Source: Bacteroidota bacterium
GTDB lineage: Bacteria; Bacteroidota; Bacteroidia; Bacteroidales; UBA7960
Length of the DNA: 64,000 nt
Assembly: GCA_018335675.1 (NCBI GenBank)
Contig: JAGXRQ010000095.1
Location: forward strand, 16,046 to 80,045
Direction: 5' to 3'
This document shows positions 10,869 through 62,625 of this stretch, in pieces. The first letter of the stretch is position 1, and every line of letters starts with the position of its first letter. A program made the position numbers and the translations under genes. The notes beneath the pieces are model-generated. The model worked only from the letters and a program-made list of their open reading frames with translations, did no database searches and was not told the DNA's origin.

Positions 10869-10905
10869 TTTTATCTTAACAATAATTTAAGACAGAAGTT
10901 CAATT

Positions 10906-11004
10906 AAGTCGGAAGTCGACAGTCGATAGTCAACAGTTGACAGTCGATAGTCAACTGTTTTATAATCTTCAATCTTAAAAATCTTACAAATCTTCAATCT
11001 TGAA
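10906..11004. repeat. degenerate heptamer tandem array (NAGTCGA x7, then AATCTTN units)
   Basis: aagtcgg aagtcga cagtcga tagtcaa cagttga cagtcga tagtcaa, then aatcttc aatctta..aatctta caaatcttc aatcttg. It starts immediately after the htrA stop. Confidence 0.9.
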
Positions 11005-16027: not shown

Positions 16028-16099
16028 TTTAATGTGATTTGTTATCTTTGAAACATAAAGATTATGGTTATAAATTAGTTATCCCTAAAAGTTAAAGTT

Positions 16100-48855: not shown

Positions 48856-51800
48856 CTAATCATTAATTCTTTGAATCATCCTAACAAAATCAAACGGACG
48901 TCTCTCGGTTGATAAAAGGAAGGCAAAAGGAGTTTCTCCACTAGGCACATCCATCCTCCTCTTTTTTGGATCTAAGTCGCTAATAAACTTGTTAAATTGA
49001 GGATTAGCCCCAATTATTTGCATAATACTATTTGAGTATGAGAAATAAAAGTATTCGGCTCCTAAAAGCTGATCTAGAGGTTGAAGGTTGGGCTTATCCT
49101 GAGATATATTCGATTCGGCTTCAGCAACTTCCTCTGTAATTTCAGGCATCTCATCTGTATTAGATTTTTTATCATTTTCATCACTATCAGCCACATCAGG
49201 AGTTTCAACATATAATGAATCTTGCTCTGCTAAACCATTCTCATCAATTTCTATTACATCTTCTTCTGATATTTCAAGTGGTTTACCTCCATGGGTAACA
49301 GGTTCAAGAATAAAAGAAATAATATCCCCTCCCCTTTGTTTTCGGATATGGAAATAACCATTAACATATTTATTCAATGGAATTTTATTAATATTTCCTA
49401 CACCTATGGCTCCCTTCGACACAAAACTTGTTGTTCTTTGATTCCAGGATAATTTTAAATCGGCCAAGTAAACTGTGTGAGTCAGTTCAGGGGGTACTCT
49501 ACGAATTACTCCACTCTGAATGATCTCTTCTCTTAAAACTGCTGCCTGAATTTCTCCGGTTTTTATCCTATATGCTTTAAGATATTTTTGCCTGTTAAGG
49601 TTTATCCTGCTTAATTTCTGTTCTTTTTCAATTACTCCGGCAATAAAATCCATTCCGCTATCAATAAAGTAGAAATCAATACCCAATACAATATCATAGT
49701 CTGTTTTAAACTCTTTTATATTATGGGTAACTGTGCCATATGATTTTGTTTTTAATTGCCCAAAATCACTACCAATATCAACAACTCCTTCTCCCTCTAA
49801 AAGACAAGTTTGAGGATTAAGCCTTATAAAATTATCCGGCATATTTCGATTTCTAAGCCTTTCCAAAGAACTTAATTGATATTCTTTGCTTAAATCATCC
49901 CAAGTAAGATAGCCTGTTGCAGAAACGATTTCCTTATCAAGGTAATGTCTTCTTCTATCGAAAAACGCTGGATAAATATGAAATGAATCACCTGCCAAAA
50001 TTAGAGCACTTTTCAAATCAACATTCATATCACTTTTCAAATTCTCTGTAACAGGTATCAAAACATTATCTGGATTTATAACATTATCGAATTTAAACCA
50101 GTTGGTTACCATTGGAGTGCAATTCACAAATATTTTCGTAGAGCCAATAAATCTCATATGCTTTTCTGATGCTGTAAGTTCAACATCGCCTTTATATGCG
50201 AATCTTGGACTTAAAGTAAAATCCTGATCTTCTAGTATTTTACCTTTTGCAAAAGTTGTATTCGACCCCGGTATTACGTCTATTTCATCAAAGTAAATTT
50301 GTTGCTTTTCTGCAGTTATATCAACATAATCATACTTACCCGAACCCCTGTATTTATTTCTGGAAATTATATCTGCAGTAACATTATAAAAGTAATGATA
50401 TCTGTCTTTTGTGTTTGCAACAATCCGTGCATCTTCTAGCTTTTTTATCTCAGCTCTGAGCAATACCGAAACCAGTCCATCTTTAGGGAAAATAGCAGCA
50501 TCTGCAACTTTAACAACATTTACCTCACTCGCATTAATCACATTTTCAGCAACTGTAAAATCAATTTTGCCTGCAAAGAATCTCAATGAATCCTGAGCTC
50601 TATGTGTAGAAATCAGTTCTTTTCCTCTAAAATCGAGGTCAATAATCTGGTCTGTACTCATATTTGCAATTTCTTCAGGATCAGGAGCCACAACACTAGT
50701 TAAACTGAGCGATTGTTTTTTCATATCCCAATCGAAATTATAACCATACCCGTCGAATCGATTTTCAGGGAAGGATATTTTACCTCCTGTTTCATTTTCA
50801 TCCAATACACCTGTAAAGACTTCTAAGTTAAAATGTCCGCTATAATTAAATGCATTAAATGCAACTCGCTTGCCGTCTGCAGTATATATTTTGAAATCTG
50901 CATTGGGGCTGTCGAATGTTTTTGCTTTAAAGGCCATATAATCTGCTGAAAGTTCAGACCCAAACAAATCCATTTTCCCGCTTCCGGTAAGTCCAACAGG
51001 AGTAATAGACAGTTTACCTCTCAATTGCGTCATCCCGGCATAAAGTTCAATTGGCTCTTTTGTCTCTGAAATGGCAAGTTCATCTTGATACGGTAAAAAC
51101 AACATTTTTACATCTTTTGCAGACACATCAGGGTATTCAACAGGCTCAAGTTGTTCAGCCAGAGCAAATGTTTTCAAATCGGCTCGGGCAGAATCCAAAA
51201 ACATTATCATTTTGTTTGCCTGCATGGTTGCATTAAGATATTCCATTTTCCCATTGGCCATAAGTCCTTCATAACTCATATCGATAGGGCCGTAATAATG
51301 TGCTTTTCCATTATAAATAGGATAACCCTCTTCCGGGGTCTTAGAATTGAAACCTAAAGAATAATCTCGCTGAACTTTCAAATAATCTCTAAAATCAGGA
51401 AAAATTCCCGTTGATATAAACACCCCATCAAATGCAATATTATCTGTTGTTGCATGGTCGAGGCTATCAACAGTAAACGGTACCAGTTTAAAGTAAACAT
51501 CCGCCCTACGATATGTTCCACTATGTACAAATTCTTTGTCGTAGTAAACAAAAGATTCATTATTGCTATTAAAAATTGGATACCTTGGAATAGGCAGCCT
51601 ACCGGATTTATTTTTGGGATTATCTATAAGTAATTCTCCATTTATTCCTTCCAATACAGTTCTAACCCTTACATAAGAATGAATTCCCCGTGAATCGGGC
51701 TGGAAAGACTTAACCCTAAAACTTAAAGAGTCGGTGTTGATTAGATCTATTTTAAATGCTTCATAATTAAAAAAGAATTCTTTGCCGAAGAAATCGAATA

Positions 51801-53562
51801 GGCCGGATTCTATCCTTCCATTAAAATACATATTGCGATTCTTTTGCATAACAACTGTACTTCCAAATGGATGCAGAACAACGTTTTTTGATGAACTTAA
51901 AGGGATGCGCGATATCCCTTGAATATGCAAATCGAAGTTTAATAGATTTATTCTGGCGTTGACCAAAGCCTCCGATTCTATTCTTATTACATCGAAATCG
52001 GACCTCCCTGTTGCTGCACCAAGATAGTGATAAAGCTTATCATTTATTGTAATCATATCATAATCAAGATCATAAACCAAAAATCCATGATGCGACATAT
52101 CCAACAACATAGCCTTAGTGGAAGGAACATTTGATCTTATATATCGCGAAAAATCTTCAACATGAAATGTTTGAGTGTTTTTGTCGCGGGCATAATTTCT
52201 CAAATGAAACAAAGGATTCATATCTGCAATACCTTGCATGCGCATAAAAAGCATATCGCTGAAGAAATTATGAGATTCAAAAACCGCTCTTTTAGGACCC
52301 GAAAAACCCCTAACAGCCTGAAATAATATTTCTTTTGAACCCTTATACCAATATAATGCTTCACAATACATATCAATATTGTGATACGTGTTCATAAAAG
52401 GAGCCCTGGAAATACCCTTTTCATCGCGCAGCAAATAAAACTCTTTTCTTTCGTGCAGATATCTCATCTGAATATTTGGATGATAGATAGAATCCCCTGA
52501 ATAATAAATACTTACACTTGATCTGTCTGCACTAATCCTGTCGTCTCTAATACTGAATGCTTTAGCTCCCACAGTTATAAATAGAGAATCATTCTCGAAA
52601 AAATGAATGTAAGCATTACCATCGGCAGTTCCTGAGCCCAAAACTCTTTGTCCCTCCATTGTGAAGCCACCCACATAATTTACTTCCGGAAAAATATTCC
52701 TAATCTCATGCACTACCTGATACGACTGAAACTTTGGATATCTGGCGTTTTCCGGTTTTACATCAGCTACAATTCTTTCTGAAAGTTTTCCATGTAAAGG
52801 AGTATCGAAAAACTTTTTATTATAGAAATGCACAGAATCAGCATCATATCTTGCAAGCTTTAGATTTATATTGTATGATGACAAATTTGCATAAACATTT
52901 TTTCTGTCAAGTTCAACTCTTTCCCAAGTTACCAAGCCCCCTTTGCCTTTCCATGCTTCATCAAAAGGAAAAAGAGAACCTTTAGTATTATGAATTATCA
53001 AGCTATCCCTCTGAGCATAACAATAAAGGTTACCATCTTGAAAATCAACTCTCAAAGTGTCGTTAATGAAATGCAGTATATAATTGTTATTGCTGTATTT
53101 CCACGACAATGTTGGAGAATCAAACACAAGATTGTCTTTAAAGATTTTAAAAGAATATTCCAGATGACGCAGATATCTGCTTTGATTTCTGAGTGTTAGT
53201 AGGGGTTTGATGCTATTGTGCCATTCTTCAAAGTTGTGGCGAGCATGTTTGGTTTTAAGCACTGCCATAACAGTGTTTATGTATAACGGATAATCAATGG
53301 GAGCTCGTAATCGCAAACCCAACATTGCGTCCATTGTATTATAAATCATTTCCTTTTGCTCATCCATAAGGTTACCATACTTCCAAACTTCACCAAATGA
53401 ATCAACAAGAGCATCCAGCTTTACTTTTTCATTTCTTTCAACAGCCGAGAATAGATTTTTTATTTCCTGAAAGAATTGCACATTATCTCGTGTAAAAGTA
53501 TTCTGTGCAACTGACAAAAAAGGCAGAAGAATTAAAACAGTAAATAGAGCTTTTTTAATCAT
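48856..53562 (-). CDS. very large conserved-looking secreted protein of unknown function
   Basis: Uninterrupted 1568-aa ORF with a signal peptide (MIKKALFTVLILLPFLSVAQ) and an acidic stretch near the C-terminus. No motif I can assign. Confidence 0.6.
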   Translation of the reverse strand: MIKKALFTVLILLPFLSVAQNTFTRDNVQFFQEIKNLFSAVERNEKVKLDALVDSFGEVWKYGNLMDEQKEMIYNTMDAMLGLRLRAPIDYPLYINTVMAVLKTKHARHNFEEWHNSIKPLLTLRNQSRYLRHLEYSFKIFKDNLVFDSPTLSWKYSNNNYILHFINDTLRVDFQDGNLYCYAQRDSLIIHNTKGSLFPFDEAWKGKGGLVTWERVELDRKNVYANLSSYNINLKLARYDADSVHFYNKKFFDTPLHGKLSERIVADVKPENARYPKFQSYQVVHEIRNIFPEVNYVGGFTMEGQRVLGSGTADGNAYIHFFENDSLFITVGAKAFSIRDDRISADRSSVSIYYSGDSIYHPNIQMRYLHERKEFYLLRDEKGISRAPFMNTYHNIDMYCEALYWYKGSKEILFQAVRGFSGPKRAVFESHNFFSDMLFMRMQGIADMNPLFHLRNYARDKNTQTFHVEDFSRYIRSNVPSTKAMLLDMSHHGFLVYDLDYDMITINDKLYHYLGAATGRSDFDVIRIESEALVNARINLLNFDLHIQGISRIPLSSSKNVVLHPFGSTVVMQKNRNMYFNGRIESGLFDFFGKEFFFNYEAFKIDLINTDSLSFRVKSFQPDSRGIHSYVRVRTVLEGINGELLIDNPKNKSGRLPIPRYPIFNSNNESFVYYDKEFVHSGTYRRADVYFKLVPFTVDSLDHATTDNIAFDGVFISTGIFPDFRDYLKVQRDYSLGFNSKTPEEGYPIYNGKAHYYGPIDMSYEGLMANGKMEYLNATMQANKMIMFLDSARADLKTFALAEQLEPVEYPDVSAKDVKMLFLPYQDELAISETKEPIELYAGMTQLRGKLSITPVGLTGSGKMDLFGSELSADYMAFKAKTFDSPNADFKIYTADGKRVAFNAFNYSGHFNLEVFTGVLDENETGGKISFPENRFDGYGYNFDWDMKKQSLSLTSVVAPDPEEIANMSTDQIIDLDFRGKELISTHRAQDSLRFFAGKIDFTVAENVINASEVNVVKVADAAIFPKDGLVSVLLRAEIKKLEDARIVANTKDRYHYFYNVTADIISRNKYRGSGKYDYVDITAEKQQIYFDEIDVIPGSNTTFAKGKILEDQDFTLSPRFAYKGDVELTASEKHMRFIGSTKIFVNCTPMVTNWFKFDNVINPDNVLIPVTENLKSDMNVDLKSALILAGDSFHIYPAFFDRRRHYLDKEIVSATGYLTWDDLSKEYQLSSLERLRNRNMPDNFIRLNPQTCLLEGEGVVDIGSDFGQLKTKSYGTVTHNIKEFKTDYDIVLGIDFYFIDSGMDFIAGVIEKEQKLSRINLNRQKYLKAYRIKTGEIQAAVLREEIIQSGVIRRVPPELTHTVYLADLKLSWNQRTTSFVSKGAIGVGNINKIPLNKYVNGYFHIRKQRGGDIISFILEPVTHGGKPLEISEEDVIEIDENGLAEQDSLYVETPDVADSDENDKKSNTDEMPEITEEVAEAESNISQDKPNLQPLDQLLGAEYFYFSYSNSIMQIIGANPQFNKFISDLDPKKRRMDVPSGETPFAFLLSTERRPFDFVRMIQRIND

Positions 53563-54430: not shown

Positions 54431-54680
54431 TTTCGTTCCTACGGAACTAATTTAATTAAATTTCTTCATTTGCTATAAACATTTCATCCCTACGGGATTA
54501 ACAAATTAAAAATTCGTACGTCTTATCTCCGTTAGCAGTGAAATCATATTTATCTATTAAAACTTCGCCTTTATGAATTACCACATTAATAATCTGTATG
54601 TTTTAACTCCGTTAGGAGTGAAATGTCTATAAAAAAATGGTATCCCAGTTTATTTAAAATCCCGGAGGGATGAAACCAAT
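54431..54680. repeat. cluster of five short hairpin units (YYCC-loop-GGRR adjoining TGAAAY), in both orientations
   Basis: The five units are gttcc-tac-ggaac (54435), atttcatccc-tac-gggat (54481), ctcc-gtta-gcag-tgaaat (54527), ctcc-gtta-ggag-tgaaat (54607) and tccc-gga-ggga-tgaaac (54660). Confidence 0.75.
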
Positions 54681-55498: not shown

Positions 55499-55560
55499 GA
55501 TGTGTATATTTTATCGTTTTTTATAATGCGATTTCGTTTTGTAAAATTATCGTTTTAATT

Positions 55561-55613
55561 TTAAGATTTGTAAGATTCTTAAGATTTGTAAGATGTAAGA
55601 TTTGTAAGATGTA
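55561..55613. repeat. 9/7-mer tandem array TAAGATTTG / TAAGATG
   Basis: taagatttg taagattct taagatttg taagatg taagatttg taagatg taa. Confidence 0.9.
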
Positions 55614-55616
55614 ACC

Positions 55617-55700
55617 CGAAGCTGGAAGTCCCTATCGGGAGCTTCCAGTTCTAGCGTGAGGAACTTCCAGCTTCCGCGACAGCGGAACTGGAAGCTTCCG
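55617..55700. repeat. two adjacent long hairpins built from CTGGAAG/CTTCCAG units
   Basis: gaagctggaagtccc-tatc-gggagcttccagttc and ggaacttccagcttccgc-gaca-gcggaactggaagcttcc. Confidence 0.7.
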
Positions 55701-55707
55701 GGGGTAT

Positions 55708-55736
55708 TATTTAATCCCTAAAACTCGCCTTTTTTT
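55708..55736 (+). repeat. left copy of the 29-bp direct repeat bracketing the CRISPR-Cas locus
   Basis: atttaatccCtaaaactcgcctttttttt. It is 28/29 identical to 62476-62504 in the same orientation. Confidence 0.85.
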
Positions 55737-55767
55737 TCTTCAATCTTACAAATCTTGCAAATCAAAG

Positions 55768-56792
55768 AGTAGTGTATTATTCCATTTTTAAATCAAACCA
55801 CAACACTACTCCTGCTTTTGTAGTGTTTTTACTAGTTGTTAATTATTCCATTTTTAAATCAAACCACAACATGTTTATTTAGAAAGAGCCGCAAATGGTG
55901 GTTGTTAATTATTCCATTTTTAAATCAAACCACAACACGTCACAGGCTATTGCATCATCCACCGCAGTTGTTAATTATTCCATTTTTAAATCAAACCACA
56001 ACCTACCCATAATTACAAATGCCACCAATAGGTTGTTAATTATTCCATTTTTAAATCAAACCACAACCAGCTTAAACAACCTGCCGTTGATAAACATGTT
56101 GTTAATTATTCCATTTTTAAATCAAACCACAACTTCCGCGTATTCTACGTAATTGCTGTCAATGTTGTTAATTATTCCATTTTTAAATCAAACCACAACA
56201 AAAGACAGTGATAGCTTTTCATTTAAAAAGTTGTTAATTATTCCATTTTTAAATCAAACCACAACCTGACCCACGAATAAAGGAACTTGAAGAAAGTTGT
56301 TAATTATTCCATTTTTAAATCAAACCACAACTGCTTCAATGATAAGGCACTCCGAATCATTGTTGTTAATTATTCCATTTTTAAATCAAACCACAACCAT
56401 CTGCGCTGCGCTGTTTTGATTAATCCAGTTGTTAATTATTCCATTTTTAAATCAAACCACAACATTGCTAGCCGCCGGACAATATACAGAATGGTTGTTA
56501 ATTATTCCATTTTTAAATCAAACCACAACGTAGCGACGCGCAATTATTGGAAGAAATTGGTTGTTAATTATTCCATTTTTAAATCAAACCACAACAAAAA
56601 ACATGCACAACCCCTTGATTGAGTAGTTGTTAATTATTCCATTTTTAAATCAAACCACAACCCCCCGCCTTACTTGTTTCCTTATATACGCGTTGTTAAT
56701 TATTCCATTTTTAAATCAAACCACAACATTGATTTTACAATCAAAATAAGCTATTATGTTGTTAATTATTCCATTTTTAAATCAAACCACAA
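55768..56792 (-). CRISPR. CRISPR array, 16 repeats of 36 bp and 15 spacers (14 x 30 bp, 1 x 29 bp)
   Basis: Plus-strand repeat is GTTGTTAATTATTCCATTTTTAAATCAAACCACAAC. Repeat starts: 55768 (degenerate, 3 mismatches), 55834, 55900, 55966, 56031, 56097, 56163, 56229, 56295, 56361, 56427, 56493, 56559, 56625, 56691, 56757. Minus-strand transcription is inferred from tracrRNA complementarity and from the degenerate repeat lying at the cas-distal end. Confidence 0.97.
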
Positions 56793-56921
56793 CATAGAGC
56801 TTTAAAACATATTAAAAATAGATGTTTTGAAGTGTTTTTTATCACAAGAAAAACACCAACAAACTTCTATGAAGTAGTTTGATTATGGTTATTTTATTTT
56901 TCCAATTATGTCAAAGAACTT
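56793..56921 (-). promoter_or_regulatory. putative CRISPR leader (cas2 stop to first repeat)
   Basis: 129-bp AT-rich non-coding stretch adjacent to the non-degenerate end of the array. No clean TAnnTTTG was found, so read-through from cas2 is possible. Confidence 0.5.
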
Positions 56922-57260
56922 TTAAAACAATTCCAGTTGAGCAGGTGCAGAACCCATTTCCTTTTCTTTTCTTCCAATAAAGTTTACAATATTACCATAT
57001 TGTTTATCTGTTATTGAAAGAATACTTACCTGCCCTTTTTCCGGCACAAATCGCCTAACTCTTTTTACATGCACTTCTGCCGATTCACGACTGGCACAAT
57101 GCCTTATATAAACCGAATATTGCATCATTGTAAAACCATCTTTTATCAGGTTTTTTCTAAAGCCTGTTGCAGCTTTGATTTGCTTTTTAGTGGTAACCGG
57201 TAAATCAAAAAACACAAATAACCACATTATATGATACGCATTTAGCCTTAACTGCTCCAT
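56922..57260 (-). CDS. cas2: CRISPR-associated endoribonuclease Cas2
   Basis: 112 aa. MWLFVFFDLPVTTKKQ...MQYSVYIRH is the typical Cas2 ferredoxin-like N-terminus. It lies 6 nt downstream of cas1. Confidence 0.9.
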   Translation of the reverse strand: MEQLRLNAYHIMWLFVFFDLPVTTKKQIKAATGFRKNLIKDGFTMMQYSVYIRHCASRESAEVHVKRVRRFVPEKGQVSILSITDKQYGNIVNFIGRKEKEMGSAPAQLELF

Positions 57261-57266
57261 TTTACA

Positions 57267-58157
57267 TTATTGCAATAAAGGATATTTTATTTTTTTTGTT
57301 TCTCCGAAAAAGCACTTTACCAATGATGCTGTTGTATTTGATAACGCAATCATCAAAGGTCTTCTGTTTTTGTCTATAAATACATCATCTGCCAGAACTT
57401 TAAGCAACTCCGCTTTGGTTTCTTTATTAAGAAACTGGTCCTCCGGATTATTTTTGTATATATTATAAACCCTTGCATCAACAAATGGGCGGTACGGCTC
57501 CATTATGTCATCTGCAAGGCAATATGAATTATATTTATTACTGTGATGGATCCCCAATGCGGGCATCAAACCTGAACCAACCAAAGCTCTGGCAACGGCT
57601 GCTCTCAATATTATATAACCATAATTCAATAAATCATTGGGGTATTCTCCAAATCTCTCACGGTTAAAATCCTTACCAAACAACTTTCCCCAATACTCTC
57701 TTGCAGCAGCACCTTCACGATTTTCGGGATCACCTGATTTAACATCTTTTGCAAAACTTAATACAGTATTATGTTTAATCCCTAGCTTTTTTAATAAATA
57801 TGCCTGATTTGTGATTTTTGCCTCTACTGTTTGTTTCCAAAGGTTCTTTTTTAAAGGAATACCGGCTTCAATCTGTTGTCTAATCGTTTCATTCTGAGTA
57901 TTGTTTCCGTCAAGATTAAGCAACATTGACTGTGGGTGGTGCTTTGAATTGCAAAACACAATAGCAGCATTATTACTCATTAAAGCCTCTATTAGTGACA
58001 TACTTAAACTTAGTCTCATATTTTCCAGAATCACAAAACCAATATCCTCTATCGGCACACTAACGATATCACCGTCTGCTTCAGGTGTTGCAATAAGTTG
58101 ATTATTTTGTAAATTCAACTTATATGGATTTGAGAAAAACAATGTGCGTTTTAGCAT
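57267..58157 (-). CDS. cas1: CRISPR-associated integrase Cas1 (type II)
   Basis: 296 aa. The catalytic region is GIHHSNKYNSYCLADDIMEPYRPFVD. It lies 11 nt downstream of cas9. Confidence 0.95.
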   Translation of the reverse strand: MLKRTLFFSNPYKLNLQNNQLIATPEADGDIVSVPIEDIGFVILENMRLSLSMSLIEALMSNNAAIVFCNSKHHPQSMLLNLDGNNTQNETIRQQIEAGIPLKKNLWKQTVEAKITNQAYLLKKLGIKHNTVLSFAKDVKSGDPENREGAAAREYWGKLFGKDFNRERFGEYPNDLLNYGYIILRAAVARALVGSGLMPALGIHHSNKYNSYCLADDIMEPYRPFVDARVYNIYKNNPEDQFLNKETKAELLKVLADDVFIDKNRRPLMIALSNTTASLVKCFFGETKKIKYPLLQ

Positions 58158-58168
58158 AAATTCATTAT

Positions 58169-61100
58169 TTATAATTGAATTATTTTACCCAATGCTGTTA
58201 TTTTAAAATCAAAGCCCTCAACTATTGTATTAAACTGGTTGTGATTTAATTTTCGCTGAGGTTTATGTTCTTCATCAATGCAAAAGGCACCATCTTGAAC
58301 CTTTAAATCAGATGCTTGTGTGGCTTCTTGGTGAAACCTTAAAACTATTGTTGCATATTCGCCAATTTTTCCAGATGGTCTTATTATACGTTGATTACTT
58401 AATCCAATAATCTTATAAAGCCTCTTCTTAATTTCAGAATGTTCTAAGTCCCAGACTTCTTCCGGTGATTTTTCCCAAAGAATAACGAGTGTTCCTATTT
58501 TAATAATAGATTTTAAAGGTAATTCCAGCTTTCCATTATTTTTTGCCTTCGGTATTAAGCCATAATAACCTTCGATGTTTTGAGCTTTCAATTCTTTCTG
58601 AACTGAGTATTTAAAAAACTCTGCCGCTTCAAGGTTTGATTTCAATTCAAAATCTCTTTTTATGTTACCATTTTCATCTTTGCCTTCATATATGGCCATC
58701 ATATAGTTACTGTCATTTGCAACATGAAAATACTCCTTATACGGCTTTGGATTTATTAATGCTTTGTCTCTTTGCTTTTTAAGATGTATTGGGTTTGTAA
58801 CCGACGGGGTATAGATTCTAACTTTTTTTATTGGAATAGGCTCTCCGTTTTTATTTGGAAGTGAATATATCTTTTGTATTTCTTTCTCAAGGTTCTCGAT
58901 TTCACTTTTTAAAATAGATTCTTCACTTTCTTCGGCTTTGCTCAACTTCTTTTTCAAATTATCAATTTCGCTTCTAAGAATCTTTTCTTTTTTACGCCCA
59001 TCTTCAACAATTTGTCTAACTCTCTCATCAACAATATTTTTTATGTTTGAATCTTCAAAATTGTTATCCAGAGCCTTTCTAACTACATATTTAATCTGTT
59101 TTTCAATTTCACCATTTTTATTAACTATCTCTTTTTCAATAGCTCCGTAGAAAGTATCTTTATGCAGGCTTCCTCTTACGGAATCTCCCTTTTGGTATAT
59201 GGCATTACCATTTTTATCTTTTACAACTCTACCTCTTTTTCTGAGTTTTTTCTTACTTTGCTTTGGTAAAACATCAGGAGTGTAGTGTGAAATTAAAACC
59301 TCATCTTCAAGTCTCTTCAAGTCTTCCGTGAAAGTATTCCAAGGCTTTGGAGTATTAAACTTGTATTTCGTGTCATTTATAAAGCTATCATCTCTGTCAT
59401 GATAATATTTTGCAAGGTTTTCATAGTTTTCTTTAGTCATGCATGCAATTACAACGGCGTCAATACAATGATGCACGTGATTAACTCTTTCTTTTTTCTC
59501 ATAATCATTCTGCAAACCCCACATTTTCCTAAAATCTGCAACAGTATTACCCTTAACAGTATATACTTTGTCAAATACAGTTTTCATGTATAAACGCCCA
59601 TATTTTGCAATTATGCCCATATCAACCAATTGACTGTTTTTGAATCCTTGGGGCACATCTATCATAAAAAAGCGACTCAATTTATTTCTGTAATAATCCC
59701 TCTCAAAGCATAGTCTGTGTCTTTTTTGTATTGCTCTATCTTTGCTATCTTTTTCAGCAGCTCCCTTGGATGCCCTTATAGCAGCCTGCACTTGTTTATC
59801 TAGTTCTTCTATCTTTGCAAGCCAAAGTCTTTCAACCCTTTCTTTTATTTCATCATAGTTAGAAATTTCAGATGGTAAATTATTCTTCTTGATAGAGCGG
59901 TTAAACCTGTTGTTGCACAACGTTTTATTTTCCTGAGAGTTATCAAAAGAAAGGCTTCTGGGGATGGTATGTTCTATATCATATTGAGGATTTGAACCAA
60001 GAAATTCACTTAAAGCAATTTCCTCTCCTGTATAAATACATTTATGCCCTTGTTCCTCCCAAAGCTGATATTTTAAAACATCGTCCTCACTTGGTTGAGT
60101 AGTCATTCCCTGAGCCTTATAATGCTCAAGAATACTTTCATAATATTTTTTTCTTATAGTTTCTCTATCTCTTTGCCAAGTTTGCAAAGCTTTCCTTTCA
60201 TTAGCATTAAGTAAGCCACGGGACATTTCAATGTTCACCTTAGTGTTCTCATCAATTATTTCATTATTTATCAACTCGTTGATTACTTTTCTTAGTTGAT
60301 GTAATGCCCTCATTGCCATCGGATTTCTAATTGAGGAGATTAGCGGACTTCCTAGATACTTCTTCCCATTGTCATCTTTTTTAGCCGGCTTATACACTTC
60401 AATAGCAGAAGGGTGATAAATATTATCCAGTTTTTTAATATCTGCCTTGTAATTATTTAATAAGAAATCTTTTACTCTTTCATCAATGGTTTGAATCTTT
60501 AAAAAGTCGCCACGACCTAAATTCTTTATCATTTGGGTTTTAAGCTGACTTAATGCTCTGCTCTCTATTCTTTTCTTAATTTCATCAGGAAAAGAATTAT
60601 ACGTTTTCTCCCCAAAATAGGATAATAATCCTTTTACTAAATCATTATGATAATAACTAATTGATTCATCACTCCAGCACTCTCCATTCTCTCTGCAATT
60701 CTTGATTATTCCATTAATAATTTCAATAATTGCTTTTTCCTCATTTTGTGTTTCAATGATATTTATTATCTCACCATTAATTTTGTTTCTTTTTATCTCA
60801 TCAGTCCATATTTCTTGTGGCAAGGCATTAGACATATTAGCTAAAACAACAGCGTGGGAATAAATAAGCCCACTTCTTAGATAAGGTAGTATATTCTTTA
60901 GCGCCTTTAAACTTAGTGAAGCAAATTCATTTTTTAATTTAATTCTGGAAAATTCAGCAATTTGTTCATCATCTAGTTTTAGTTTATTTTTTGCAAATTC
61001 AACCAATTTTTCATCATTATTAAAAGTCATCAACACATGCCAAACATCGTCAATATTTATCATTGATGTTTTTCCATCTTTTTTTCTAACATGTTCAATA

Positions 61101-62218
61101 TGCCAATTTAAAAAATCATCACCAAAAATGCTTTTAAATCTTGCTGATACAGGGTTGCCACTAACTGTAGTGTTCATTTGGTAATTAAATATATAGTCTT
61201 CAGCTTTTTTGTCCCTGTCCTTAAAATACTTGTATCTGTTTTTGGGGGCTAATGCTTTCGCAATATCTTCAAATGGAAAATGATCTTTTTTAAGGTAGAA
61301 TTTTTCAATTACTTTTTTTCGTTCTTCCTCATTTAGTGGTCTAAGTTTTTCATCTTCAGGGGTTTGTATTCGAATATTATTCACAAAGCATAACATTCTG
61401 TATTCTTCAAATAAAGGATGAGAAACAGAGCACCTTTGTTTATTCTTTTCAAAAACACACATTCCAATTAATCCTTTTTGTGACTTCAACGGTCTTTGGA
61501 AAAAAATAGCTTTATAAATCTTGTTCTTAAAATCATCTGAAAGCTCTTGAACTTCACAAATTTTATCAAACTCCTCTAAATAATGTTCTTCTCTATGAGT
61601 ATATTGATCGCGGATTTTCTCCCCTTTTAAATACTTTTCATAAAAAAATTGCCCAAGGGTTTTCTCTCCTTTTGCAATATTTATTTCCTCAATATTCTTT
61701 TTTACAGCACCATCAGATTCTTTAGTTCCTTCAAGTCTATTGCTTAAAAAACCTCTTCTTTGTGCTATATGATATAATGCCCTACCTATTATGAATCTGT
61801 TATTCTCAACATTTTGGTCAAGCTTCTCCGTTGCACAAATACTCCTGAAATAATAAGGATTACGATTTGACATTTCATCTGTTTTCCACCAAGCATGAAA
61901 CAATTCATTAGTTGGGTAAACTTTTTTGTAGCGCCAATTAAAAAGATCTTCTTCACTGATTTTTGGGCAAAATCCATATTCTGTTAATACTTTAAGAGTT
62001 TCTATTTTCCTCAGCTTTCTTCTGAATTTCAGCCTTCTGGCACTTCTATATTTTGTTCTTTCAGCTGCCTTGGAGTTTTCAATACCTTTCTCAATTTTTA
62101 CTCCCTCTTGAAATATTCTTACTCCTTTTTCAATAAGTTTAAAACTTTCTTTATCTTTTTCAACCACAGCCCATCCGATGCTGTTAGTTCCGAGGTCAAG
62201 TCCCAAAATTTTCGTCAT
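58169..62218 (-). CDS. cas9: Cas9 (type II-C context), 1349 aa
   Basis: RuvC-I ILGLDLGTNSIGWAV (D8), an Arg-rich bridge helix (aa ~52-72), RuvC-II NIEMSR (E664), HNH YDIEHTIPRS...NNRFNRSIKKN (H750, codon 59971-59969 checked) and RuvC-III NHVHHCIDA (H917 and D920, codons checked). No csn2 or cas4 in the locus. Confidence 0.95.
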   Translation of the reverse strand: MTKILGLDLGTNSIGWAVVEKDKESFKLIEKGVRIFQEGVKIEKGIENSKAAERTKYRSARRLKFRRKLRKIETLKVLTEYGFCPKISEEDLFNWRYKKVYPTNELFHAWWKTDEMSNRNPYYFRSICATEKLDQNVENNRFIIGRALYHIAQRRGFLSNRLEGTKESDGAVKKNIEEINIAKGEKTLGQFFYEKYLKGEKIRDQYTHREEHYLEEFDKICEVQELSDDFKNKIYKAIFFQRPLKSQKGLIGMCVFEKNKQRCSVSHPLFEEYRMLCFVNNIRIQTPEDEKLRPLNEEERKKVIEKFYLKKDHFPFEDIAKALAPKNRYKYFKDRDKKAEDYIFNYQMNTTVSGNPVSARFKSIFGDDFLNWHIEHVRKKDGKTSMINIDDVWHVLMTFNNDEKLVEFAKNKLKLDDEQIAEFSRIKLKNEFASLSLKALKNILPYLRSGLIYSHAVVLANMSNALPQEIWTDEIKRNKINGEIINIIETQNEEKAIIEIINGIIKNCRENGECWSDESISYYHNDLVKGLLSYFGEKTYNSFPDEIKKRIESRALSQLKTQMIKNLGRGDFLKIQTIDERVKDFLLNNYKADIKKLDNIYHPSAIEVYKPAKKDDNGKKYLGSPLISSIRNPMAMRALHQLRKVINELINNEIIDENTKVNIEMSRGLLNANERKALQTWQRDRETIRKKYYESILEHYKAQGMTTQPSEDDVLKYQLWEEQGHKCIYTGEEIALSEFLGSNPQYDIEHTIPRSLSFDNSQENKTLCNNRFNRSIKKNNLPSEISNYDEIKERVERLWLAKIEELDKQVQAAIRASKGAAEKDSKDRAIQKRHRLCFERDYYRNKLSRFFMIDVPQGFKNSQLVDMGIIAKYGRLYMKTVFDKVYTVKGNTVADFRKMWGLQNDYEKKERVNHVHHCIDAVVIACMTKENYENLAKYYHDRDDSFINDTKYKFNTPKPWNTFTEDLKRLEDEVLISHYTPDVLPKQSKKKLRKRGRVVKDKNGNAIYQKGDSVRGSLHKDTFYGAIEKEIVNKNGEIEKQIKYVVRKALDNNFEDSNIKNIVDERVRQIVEDGRKKEKILRSEIDNLKKKLSKAEESEESILKSEIENLEKEIQKIYSLPNKNGEPIPIKKVRIYTPSVTNPIHLKKQRDKALINPKPYKEYFHVANDSNYMMAIYEGKDENGNIKRDFELKSNLEAAEFFKYSVQKELKAQNIEGYYGLIPKAKNNGKLELPLKSIIKIGTLVILWEKSPEEVWDLEHSEIKKRLYKIIGLSNQRIIRPSGKIGEYATIVLRFHQEATQASDLKVQDGAFCIDEEHKPQRKLNHNQFNTIVEGFDFKITALGKIIQL

Positions 62219-62264
62219 AGCTAAATGTTTTTATAGTAAATTATGTTTATTTGAATTAGTTCTA

Positions 62265-62272
62265 TATCTTTG
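62265..62272 (+). promoter_or_regulatory. candidate -7 promoter element for tracrRNA
   Basis: TATCTTTG (TAnnTTTG) lies ~12 nt upstream of the anti-repeat, on the strand opposite cas9 and 47 nt from the cas9 ATG. Confidence 0.5.
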
Positions 62273-62276
62273 CAAC

Positions 62277-62368
62277 AAGATATAAAATTCCATTTTAAAT
62301 CTTATCACAATAAGGCTATATGCCGAAGGATTTTTATCCTATACTCCCGCTTCGGTGGGAGTTTTTTA
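62277..62368 (+). ncRNA. tracrRNA: tracrRNA (anti-repeat, nexus, hairpin, terminator hairpin)
   Basis: The anti-repeat at 62284-62311 (AAAAUUCCAUUUUAAAUCUUAUCACAAU) pairs with the minus-strand repeat transcript GUUGUGGUUUGAUUUAAAAAUGGAAU. It is followed by AAGGCUAUAUGCC (compare the SpCas9 nexus AAGGCUAGUCC), AGGAU-UUUU-AUCCU, and ACUCCCGC-UUCG-GUGGGAGU with U6. The 5' end is estimated from the promoter motif only. Confidence 0.8.
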
Positions 62369-62475: not shown

Positions 62476-62504
62476 ATTTAATCCTTAAAACTCGCCTTTT
62501 TTTT
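62476..62504 (+). repeat. right copy of the 29-bp direct repeat bracketing the CRISPR-Cas locus
   Basis: atttaatccTtaaaactcgcctttttttt. It is 28/29 identical to 55708-55736. Confidence 0.85.
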
Positions 62505-62625
62505 ATACCTTTTACCATTATCCCAAAACTCAAAACCCAAAACCTAAAACCCAAAACCCCAACCTAAAACCTAATCCCCAATCTTACCAATCTTACAAAT
62601 CTTCAATCTTACCAATCAAAAAAAA
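62505..62625. repeat. heptamer tandem array (CCCAAAA / CCTAAAA units changing stepwise into CAATCTT units)
   Basis: cccaaaa ctcaaaa cccaaaa cctaaaa cccaaaa ccccaa cctaaaa cctaatc cccaatc ttaccaatc ttacaaatc ttcaatc ttaccaatc. Confidence 0.9.

Follow-up and report, generated by a model that had tools for sequence, protein, structure and literature searches.

Organization of the locus

The 64,000-nt stretch of contig JAGXRQ010000095.1 analyzed here (positions 16,046 to 80,045 of the contig, assembly GCA_018335675.1; hereafter the window) carries a CRISPR-Cas9 locus that consists of a repeat-spacer array, a leader, the genes cas2, cas1, and cas9, and a divergent gene for trans-activating CRISPR RNA (tracrRNA). 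It is very probably a chromosomal type II-C adaptive-immunity locus of an uncultured Bacteroidota bacterium. All parts of the locus are present and intact, and its repeat and anti-repeat match each other. An earlier note on this DNA, made from the sequence alone, had described a complete type II-C locus, and the gene content (cas9, cas1, cas2, tracrRNA, and array) bears this out; that annotation was correct and careful, and could be confirmed almost to the base. For comparison, we used a set of 23 loci encoding Cas9 relatives, taken from species-representative genomes and designated below by L numbers. Those points of the earlier description that found support, namely the II-C assignment, the nuclease residues, the tracrRNA, the strands, and the polarity, are backed by the comparison with 20 related loci.

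The three cas genes lie on the minus strand. The cas9 gene (58169 to 62218) encodes a protein of 1349 aa that matches the Cas9 model TIGR01865 at 462 bits (cut-off 100) and in which the Pfam families HNH_4, RuvC_III, and Cas9_a were recognized. The nuclease residues that had been reported as intact are all found in canonical motifs: D8 (GLDLGTN), E664 (NIEMSR), H917 and D920 (both in HHCIDA) in RuvC, and H750 (YDIEHTIP) in HNH, to which N773 (RFNRS) of the HNH domain can be added. The cas1 gene (57267 to 58157) encodes a 296-aa protein of the type II/NMENI class, matching the type II Cas1 model TIGR03639 at 304 bits and assigned by PADLOC as Cas1_II, and the product of cas2 (56922 to 57260), 112 aa in length, matches TIGR01573 at 66.5 bits and is assigned as Cas2_II.

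The array (55769 to 56793, minus strand) comprises 16 repeats of 36 nt and 15 spacers, as repeat finders and a direct count agree and as had been counted before, although its start was then placed one base too far to the left, at 55768. The spacers are of 30 nt, except for one of 29 nt. In the plus strand, the repeat GTTGTTAATTATTCCATTTTTAAATCAAACCACAAC occurs in 15 exact copies, with first bases from 55835 to 56758; in the sense of the CRISPR RNA (crRNA) it reads GTTGTGGTTTGATTTAAAAATGGAATAATTAACAAC, and its predicted start GUUGUGGUUUGAUUUAAAAAUGG is supported by the comparison of related loci. Direct counting likewise upheld the description of a single degenerate copy, the cas-distal terminal repeat (55769 to 55804, minus strand), which differs from the others by three mismatches, all in its outer end (3' in the crRNA sense). 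This copy would mark the trailer, that is, the oldest end of the array, and decay at the matching position of the terminal repeat is seen also in L006, L021, and L023. Sixteen copies of a 36-nt sequence with a period of 65-66 bp cannot have arisen by chance. Arrays were present in 16 of the 23 related loci, from which 13 full 36-nt consensus repeats were recovered; 15 of the related arrays have a period of about 66 bp and repeats that begin with GTTGTGG(T/A)TTGA in the crRNA sense.

The tracrRNA

The tracrRNA is encoded directly upstream of cas9 and divergently from it, in the plus strand at about 62278 to 62368 (its 5' end being approximate), where the sequence reads ...TATCTTTGCAACAAGATATAAAATTCCATTTTAAATCTTATCACAATAAGGCTATATGCCGAAGGATTTTTATCCTATACTCCCGCTTCGGTGGGAGTTTTTT. 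The anti-repeat (62286-62311) pairs with nucleotides 1-27 of the minus-strand repeat. It is followed by two conserved helices, the GGC/GCC stem of the nexus (62314-62316 with 62322-62324) and a middle hairpin (62328-62339), and by a terminator hairpin with a stem of 8 pairs (62343-62362), the T-run of which, a U-tract in the RNA, extends to 62367. The terminator (62343-62367) is the strongest of the five terminator-like sites called in the locus, having the longest stem and the most G-C pairs. The energy of the anti-repeat:repeat duplex is -21.5 to -23.6 kcal/mol, and the duplex includes a conserved 2x2 internal loop.

Divergent tracrRNA genes in the matching orientation were found directly upstream of cas9 in 20 of the 23 related loci. 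RNAalifold analysis of 20 aligned tracrRNAs returned three helices (nexus, hairpin, and terminator), with compensatory changes in 7 of 14 pairs, mostly in two of the helices, the terminator and the last pair of the middle hairpin. Among 15 loci, the duplex of a repeat with its cognate anti-repeat was the best or tied-best one in 11, with a mean energy of -22.6 kcal/mol for cognate and -13.3 kcal/mol for non-cognate pairs; the anti-repeat co-varies with the repeat of its own locus. The window was left out when a covariance model was constructed from the published tracrRNAs of the Rsp and Cme3 Cas9 systems (see below) and those of 17 related loci. This model gave a sole significant match in the 64 kb, at 62293-62368 of the plus strand (95.7 bits, E=1.8e-18), and the window tracrRNA retains every conserved position of the family. 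This match and the plus-strand terminator corroborate the strand to which the tracrRNA had been assigned. The family is thus a conserved one, and it has been validated by biochemical work. No Rfam 15 family reached its gathering score across the window, and at E<=1 only chance-level matches were obtained across the locus.

As regards the start of this RNA, the Bacteroidetes -7 promoter consensus is TAnnTTTG. A putative -7 box that fits it, TATCTTTG, lies at 62265 to 62272 of the plus strand, about 10-15 nt upstream of the anti-repeat, and the TAnnTTTG motif is found shortly upstream of the anti-repeat in most of the related loci. From the position of the box we infer a tracrRNA start near 62278-62282 and a length of about 85-90 nt. 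A scan for sigma-70 promoters gave 36 matches in comparison to 32 +/- 6 in shuffled sequences and thus no enrichment, which is expected for Bacteroidota; therefore, the TAnnTTTG motifs were read by eye and with a regular expression. A single-guide RNA (sgRNA) designed in silico, spacer-GUUGUGGUUUGAUUUAAAAAUGGAAU-GAAA-AUUCCAUUUUAAAUCUUAUCACAAUAAGGCUAUAUGCCGAAGGAUUUUUAUCCUAUACUCCCGCUUCGGUGGGAGUUUUUU, folds into the duplex, the nexus, and two hairpins (z = -7.6).

Polarity of the array and production of crRNAs

The minus strand of the array, which has the same sense as cas9-cas1-cas2, had been proposed to give rise to crRNAs, because the plus strand carries the tracrRNA terminator, and because the anti-repeat is similar to the repeat as read on that strand. 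Both the tracrRNA complementarity and the sense of the repeat in 12 related loci, which matches that of the window, agree with this proposal. Also the cas-distal position of the degenerate repeat is as had been described, and it recurs in L006, L021, and L023, in which the array can be seen up to its far end. Since the degenerate repeat is cas-distal in all four loci, the end at which new spacers are acquired most likely adjoins cas2, at the 5' end of the crRNA precursor.

The leader, which separates the stop codon of cas2 from the first repeat (56794 to 56921, minus strand), is of 128 nt rather than 129 nt as had been reported, and may have a promoter function. Directly after the cas2 stop codon it includes the block GTTCTTTGA, common to the window and its close relatives, and further a (C)CACTTC-like block (ACTACTTC in the window) that is common to a wider set of relatives. 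In five gut and rumen relatives (L015, L019, L020, L021, and L023), a perfect TAnnTTTG reading into the array is present at position -92 of the leader.

Two modes of crRNA production have to be weighed here: transcription from a leader promoter followed by tracrRNA-dependent processing, and initiation at promoters located within each repeat, as in the type II-C systems of Neisseria, Campylobacter, and Flavobacterium, where the 5' ends of crRNAs are set by initiation and neither a leader promoter nor RNase III is needed. The latter mode has been described as typical of type II-C (PMC8092290 and PMC10309648). It could also be favored by the TTG that each repeat has about 33 nt upstream of the spacer and that corresponds to the -33 element proposed for F. 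columnare (PMC8092290), by the start GTTGTGGTTTGAT, which the window repeat shares with that of F. columnare (PMC5395568), and by the window leader, which does not contain a perfect TAnnTTTG. However, a direct reading of the 3' end of the repeat (TAATTAACAAC) revealed no -7 box resembling TAnnTTTG, the gut relatives have a perfect box in the leader instead, and the position of the leader at the crRNA 5' end corresponds to the conventional, leader-driven polarity, unlike in the F. columnare II-C system. At the level of sequence, neither a repeat promoter nor transcription towards the acquisition end, which together characterize the Neisseria/Campylobacter/Flavobacterium mode, was found in the window. 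Repeat-borne promoters are thus an unlikely, if still serious, explanation, and a leader-driven precursor crRNA that would be processed with the help of tracrRNA is favored, because the repeat 3' end is devoid of the box.

In the window, L006, L021, and L023, the crRNA sense runs from the leader into the array, as in type II-A systems, and the end of the spacer that is proximal to the protospacer adjacent motif (PAM) faces away from the leader. The arrays of three more distant relatives (L008, L009, and L012; about 52-57% identical to the window in Cas1 and 65-71% in Cas2) are inverted with respect to the cas operon, with crRNAs transcribed towards cas2. Their repeats no longer end in ...ACAAC. 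The degenerate repeats of L008 and L009 are still cas-distal, which corresponds to a Neisseria-like polarity, while the contig of L012 ends there. We tentatively consider that the array has been flipped relative to the cas2-side leader within one Cas9 clade. If so, the Cas1-Cas2 of L008, L009, and L012 and those of the window would insert spacers in opposite orientations relative to the leader, and the clade would offer a natural test bed for the way in which type II integrases set spacer orientation.

Predicted function of the locus and an interrupted cas9 allele

We infer transcription starts, RNA processing, cleavage activity, and the spacer-acquisition end of the system as follows. Transcription of the array would proceed on the minus strand, the leader at the cas2 side being its most likely starting point, and the divergent tracrRNA of about 90 nt would pair with the first 27 or so nucleotides of each repeat to form the duplex with the conserved 2x2 internal loop. 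This duplex would be processed, by RNase III in the characterized type II systems, and then loaded on Cas9, which would locate a protospacer beside a 3' PAM and cut both strands by means of its HNH (H750, N773) and RuvC (D8, E664, H917, D920) nucleases. New spacers would be inserted by Cas1-Cas2 at the cas2-proximal repeat.

Several results weigh against this reading, among them the failure to find spacer targets. When the entire array was compared by BLAST with 50,697 phage and 72,556 plasmid records, all matches were repeat-like or due to chance; exact 22-24-nt cores of eight spacers had no matches in IMG/VR, and neither did one spacer and the full repeat when scanned in JGI metagenomes. In the window itself, no near match (fewer than 8 mismatches) to any spacer was found outside the array. 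To these can be added the leader of the window without a perfect TAnnTTTG box and an assembly in which cas9 is split. The window Cas2 is encoded also in the assembly ENA ERZ27300255, the contig k141_14246 of which (L024) agrees with the window at 100% identity for 13.5 kb, a stretch that includes the array, and diverges from it 140 nt before the contig end, inside cas9 (L024:1-141). The other half of cas9 is located at the end of contig k141_21972 (L025:7767-7903), and the two junctions overlap by 8 bp, TTAAATAA, corresponding to 60453-60460 of the window. Imperfect inverted repeats, AGCTAAGTTCTAA... and GGCTAAGTTCTAA..., form the ends of the foreign DNA; a TATCTTTG box and an open reading frame (ORF) that starts with MKTIQEIRNLFQELTG follow one of them. 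Terminal inverted repeats together with an 8-bp target duplication are the signature of an insertion sequence (IS), which thus interrupts cas9 in ERZ27300255, an allele belonging to the same organism. Searches of Pfam and NCBIfam with fragments of 31 and 45 aa from the two ends gave no credible match that would indicate the IS family, and the element is absent from the 64-kb window.

The cas9 product of the ERZ27300255 population is truncated after about residue 588, so that at least some of this population can dispense with the system. This tempers the claim of the earlier note that the locus looks active, but does not make the copy in the window inactive. Since the array of L024 is identical to that of the window, it provides no information on which end of the array varies.

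Could the locus, intact in sequence, be no longer used and be a remnant on its way to loss? The IS-split allele of the sibling assembly with its 8-bp target duplication, the 15 spacers, none of which matched any sequence searched, and the degenerate trailer repeat would all fit such a history. In contrast, the three cas ORFs are of full length with every catalytic residue present, the 15 internal repeats are identical, and all conserved family positions of the tracrRNA are retained, while missing protospacer matches are usual for poorly sampled environmental hosts. We consider a remnant quite improbable, and activity of the window locus in immunity plausible.

Type assignment and relation to known Cas9 proteins

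As expected for type II, the locus encodes a single Cas9, in which the RuvC domain is split and an HNH domain is inserted, and its Cas1-Cas2 module is located beside the array. The intergenic gaps amount to 11 bp (cas9-cas1), 6 bp (cas1-cas2), and 128 bp (cas2-array), and both flanks are occupied by housekeeping genes, with tpiA and prmA at one end and a gene for an FAD-dependent oxidoreductase at the other. No csn2- or cas4-like gene is present within the locus, as these gaps leave no room for it; because of the size of the gaps and the housekeeping nature of the flanks, there is no fourth cas gene. The best Protein Data Bank matches of the window Cas9 (E about 1e-44 to 1e-30) are named in the search output only as Cas9, and we take them to be the type II-C GeoCas9 and NmeCas9. 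A wrong typing of what would really be a II-A or II-B locus with a missed fourth gene found no support and is already effectively refuted by the short gaps, the identity of the neighbors, and the presumed II-C origin of the best-scoring solved structures.

In three close relatives belonging to three genera (L002:10128-10751, L006:10115-10729, and L003:11211-11861), a gene of about 205-216 aa is present at a conserved position between cas9 and cas1. Its product has motifs similar to those of HUH-/Y1-transposases (PNHFHLL and YIHxNPVxHG), with Pfam Y1_Tnp matches that are sub-threshold only; the window, with its cas9-cas1 gap of 11 bp, is without it. A different conserved ORF of 218 aa, with no Pfam match, lies between cas9 and cas1 at L003:10512-11168 and L014:11100-11756.

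The earlier note had contrasted the 36-nt repeat and the 1349-aa Cas9 of the window with repeats of about 47 nt and Cas9s of 1400-1500 aa in Bacteroidota, and had proposed a different sublineage. The contrast is real as far as another Bacteroidota lineage is concerned, that of clade X, to which 45-50-nt repeats have been assigned (PMC7606464); however, the 36-nt lineage is itself already well known, and a separate sublineage is not supported, as the Rsp, Ghe, and Cme3 Cas9s share the guide-RNA family of the window (PMC7606464). Nor is the protein uncharted: the exact sequence is annotated in GenBank (MBS4014081.1, 'MAG: type II CRISPR RNA-guided endonuclease Cas9 [Bacteroidetes bacterium]') on a 103-kb contig of a metagenome-assembled genome, where the neighboring Cas1, Cas2, TpiA, and PrmA are annotated as well, and it groups with Rsp in our tree. 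The window Cas9 is an uncharacterized orthologue within a known and partly characterized clade. At least 120 cluster representatives of a large protein database are 53-68% identical to it, nearly all along practically the whole protein. Their sources are Mariniphaga, Draconibacterium, Saccharicrinis, Carboxylicivirga, and many metagenome-assembled genomes; several of these homologues are from Bacteroidales or Prolixibacteraceae, and many are annotated as Cas9. The nearest relatives are from genera of Marinilabiliales type (Draconibacterium, Saccharicrinis, and Mariniphaga).

A neighbor-joining tree of the N-terminal 400 aa, constructed with II-C reference sequences only, places the window Cas9 in a subclade of proteins of about 1345 aa from Marinilabiliales-type organisms. 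This subclade adjoins another one, of proteins of about 1200 aa from gut and rumen Bacteroidales, which contains Rsp, and is far from the Nme2 and Geobacillus Cas9s. In comparison to the relatives of about 1200 aa, the extra length of the window Cas9 is mainly due to an insertion in the recognition (REC) lobe (499-574) and a C-terminal insertion of 29 aa (1083-1111). Our literature search found no paper characterizing a Cas9 of the Marinilabiliales subclade.

Among the enzymes of this guide-RNA family, the PAMs of Rsp, Ghe, and Cme3 have been determined with their sgRNAs in an in vitro cleavage screen (Gasiunas et al. 2020, PMC7606464). The Rsp Cas9 of Rikenellaceae sp. (WP_035473639, 1213-1214 aa) belongs to clade VIII and has the PAM NVNDCCY, or N4CC; Ghe, from an Elkhorn Slough mat metagenome (1525 aa), belongs to clade IX and has a NARWTAC-like PAM, while Cme3, from compost (1124 aa), has the PAM NATCCTN (PMC7606464). 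The window has the hallmarks of the clade VIII/GUUGUGGUUUGAU guide-RNA family, a 36-nt repeat starting with GUUGUGGUUUGAU, the tracrRNA core CACAAUAAGGC...GCCG, and, over the part compared, a Cas9 colinear with Rsp. Rsp resembles it in the 36-nt repeat beginning with GUUGUGGUUUGAUG, in the tracrRNA core (...CUUAYCACAAUAAGGC-loop-GCCG-hairpin-terminator), and in Cas9, which over its N-terminal 400 aa, the part of Rsp on which the colinearity rests, is colinear with that of the window at 48% identity, and falls in the same broad branch of the tree. The differences are that Rsp is shorter by about 135 aa, the REC (499-574) and C-terminal (1083-1111) insertions being those of the window Cas9, and that Rsp has been assayed in vitro, whereas the window Cas9 is known here from its sequence. 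The repeat of Ghe also starts with GUUGUGGUUUGAUG and that of Cme3 slightly differently, with GUUGUGGAUUGAU, and the tracrRNA scaffold of Ghe is nearly identical to that of the window from CUUAUCACAAUAAGGCUAUAUGCCGAAGGAU to the terminator. However, the Cas9s of Ghe and Cme3 are only 32-42% identical to that of the window in alignable N-terminal segments, have large indels, and fall in a different clade.

The type II-C system of Flavobacterium columnare, compared here by its repeat and locus layout and not by Cas9 sequence, is likewise from Bacteroidota and has a 36-nt repeat with the shared start GTTGTGGTTTGAT (PMC5395568). It has been assayed for plasmid interference, natural spacer acquisition has been observed in it, and its PAM is N5TAAA (PMC8092290). 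The F. columnare array was reported to be transcribed towards the leader, putatively from repeat-embedded promoters, and parDE is located between cas9 and the array (PMC8092290), whereas the window has its leader at the crRNA 5' end and is without an accessory gene. The start GTTGTGGTTTGAT is found in an Alistipes shahii array as well. The systems of NmeCas9 and GeoCas9 have the same gene set as the window (cas9, cas1, cas2, and tracrRNA) and a nexus of the same design (ACAAUAAGGC...GCCG), but their Cas9s are of about 1080 aa rather than 1349 aa and about 25% identical in the N-terminal 400 aa. In Nme, crRNAs are made from promoters in the repeats, and another part of the locus holds the tracrRNA gene. 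The Bacteroidota Cas9s with 45-50-nt repeats (those of clade X, and further Jpa with 1459 aa and a 46-nt repeat and that of B. fragilis with a 47-nt repeat) are of the same phylum as the window and resemble it in their type II-C set of genes and in a nexus motif related to its own, while the window belongs to the 36-nt lineage instead.

The spacer searches in phage, plasmid, and metagenome data yielded no protospacer from which a PAM could be read, and the statement of the earlier note that the window Cas9 is of unknown PAM holds. The WED/PI region of this protein is about 44-46% identical to those of L013 and L017, which group with Rsp and served as its proxies, and 38% identical to that of L021, a gut relative at a greater distance. 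Because of such low identity to the Rsp proxies, the Rsp PAM is not transferable, and moving N4CC onto the window Cas9 would be unsafe. That the subclade of about 1345 aa has a new PAM is a separate suggestion, made as tentatively as that of the flipped arrays. A guide RNA can be designed with confidence, because the tracrRNA scaffold matches the sgRNAs that work for Rsp, Ghe, and Cme3. The appeal of the enzyme as an editor rests wholly on its PAM, since with 1349 aa it is no smaller than SpCas9. Its practical value is modest: it extends the list of Cas9 orthologues by one, and the closest enzyme that has been assayed in vitro shares about 48% identity with it in the N-terminal 400 aa. The locus is real, complete, and standard, an ordinary member of a known lineage, and its biology adds nothing unexpected to the knowledge of type II-C systems. 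Small, checkable points on the turnover of such loci come from the sibling allele disrupted by an IS and from the relatives with flipped arrays.

Flanking and other sequence elements

Direct repeats bracket the CRISPR-Cas locus, at 55709-55763 and 62476-62617. One of their components, ATTTAATCC(C/T)TAAAACTCGCCTTTTTTTT, is identical at 28 of 29 positions and occurs in the window only at both flanks; the other is a 9-mer repeat of CAATCTTACAAATCTT type. We considered whether the locus is a mobile CRISPR-Cas cassette marked by these repeats. None of the loci of relatives, which lie in other genomic contexts, has tpiA, prmA, or the FAD oxidoreductase gene within 6 kb. Against a mobile cassette weighs the occurrence of the 9-mer component also in an unrelated intergenic region (10971-10996), and, unique to the flanks as the 29-nt repeat is, at least two matches to its 17-nt core were obtained in 22 of 100 shuffles. 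The bracketing repeats could be a scar of insertion or recombination, or a coincidence of dispersed intergenic repeats. The 9-mers, with 9 matches versus 0.9 expected, are dispersed in the genome, because they are present also in a second intergenic region, at 10900-11000, where AATCTTA(A/C)AAATCTT 9-mer repeats accompany the palindromic core GTCGATAGTCAACAGTTGACAGTCGATAGTCAAC.

Between tpiA and the trailer of the array, a G+C-rich twin-hairpin element (55604-55705; -49.8 kcal/mol, z = -5.0) stands out in a genome that is otherwise of 34% G+C. It is flanked by inverted blocks of 9-mers (55558-55614 and 55741-55763), has no match in Rfam, and looks like a repetitive extragenic palindrome (REP) or a miniature inverted-repeat transposable element (MITE). 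On the other side of the locus, between the right-hand copy of the 29-nt repeat and the 9-mers, the heptamer CCCAAAA is repeated in tandem in about 7 copies (62522-62571); the left-hand flank is without this heptamer array. Further from the locus, the prmA-tpiA intergenic region contains a 48-nt direct repeat (54497-54544 and 54577-54624, 81% identity), and prmA is adjoined by an ORF of 1568 aa (48856-53562, minus strand) that matches no Pfam or NCBIfam family.

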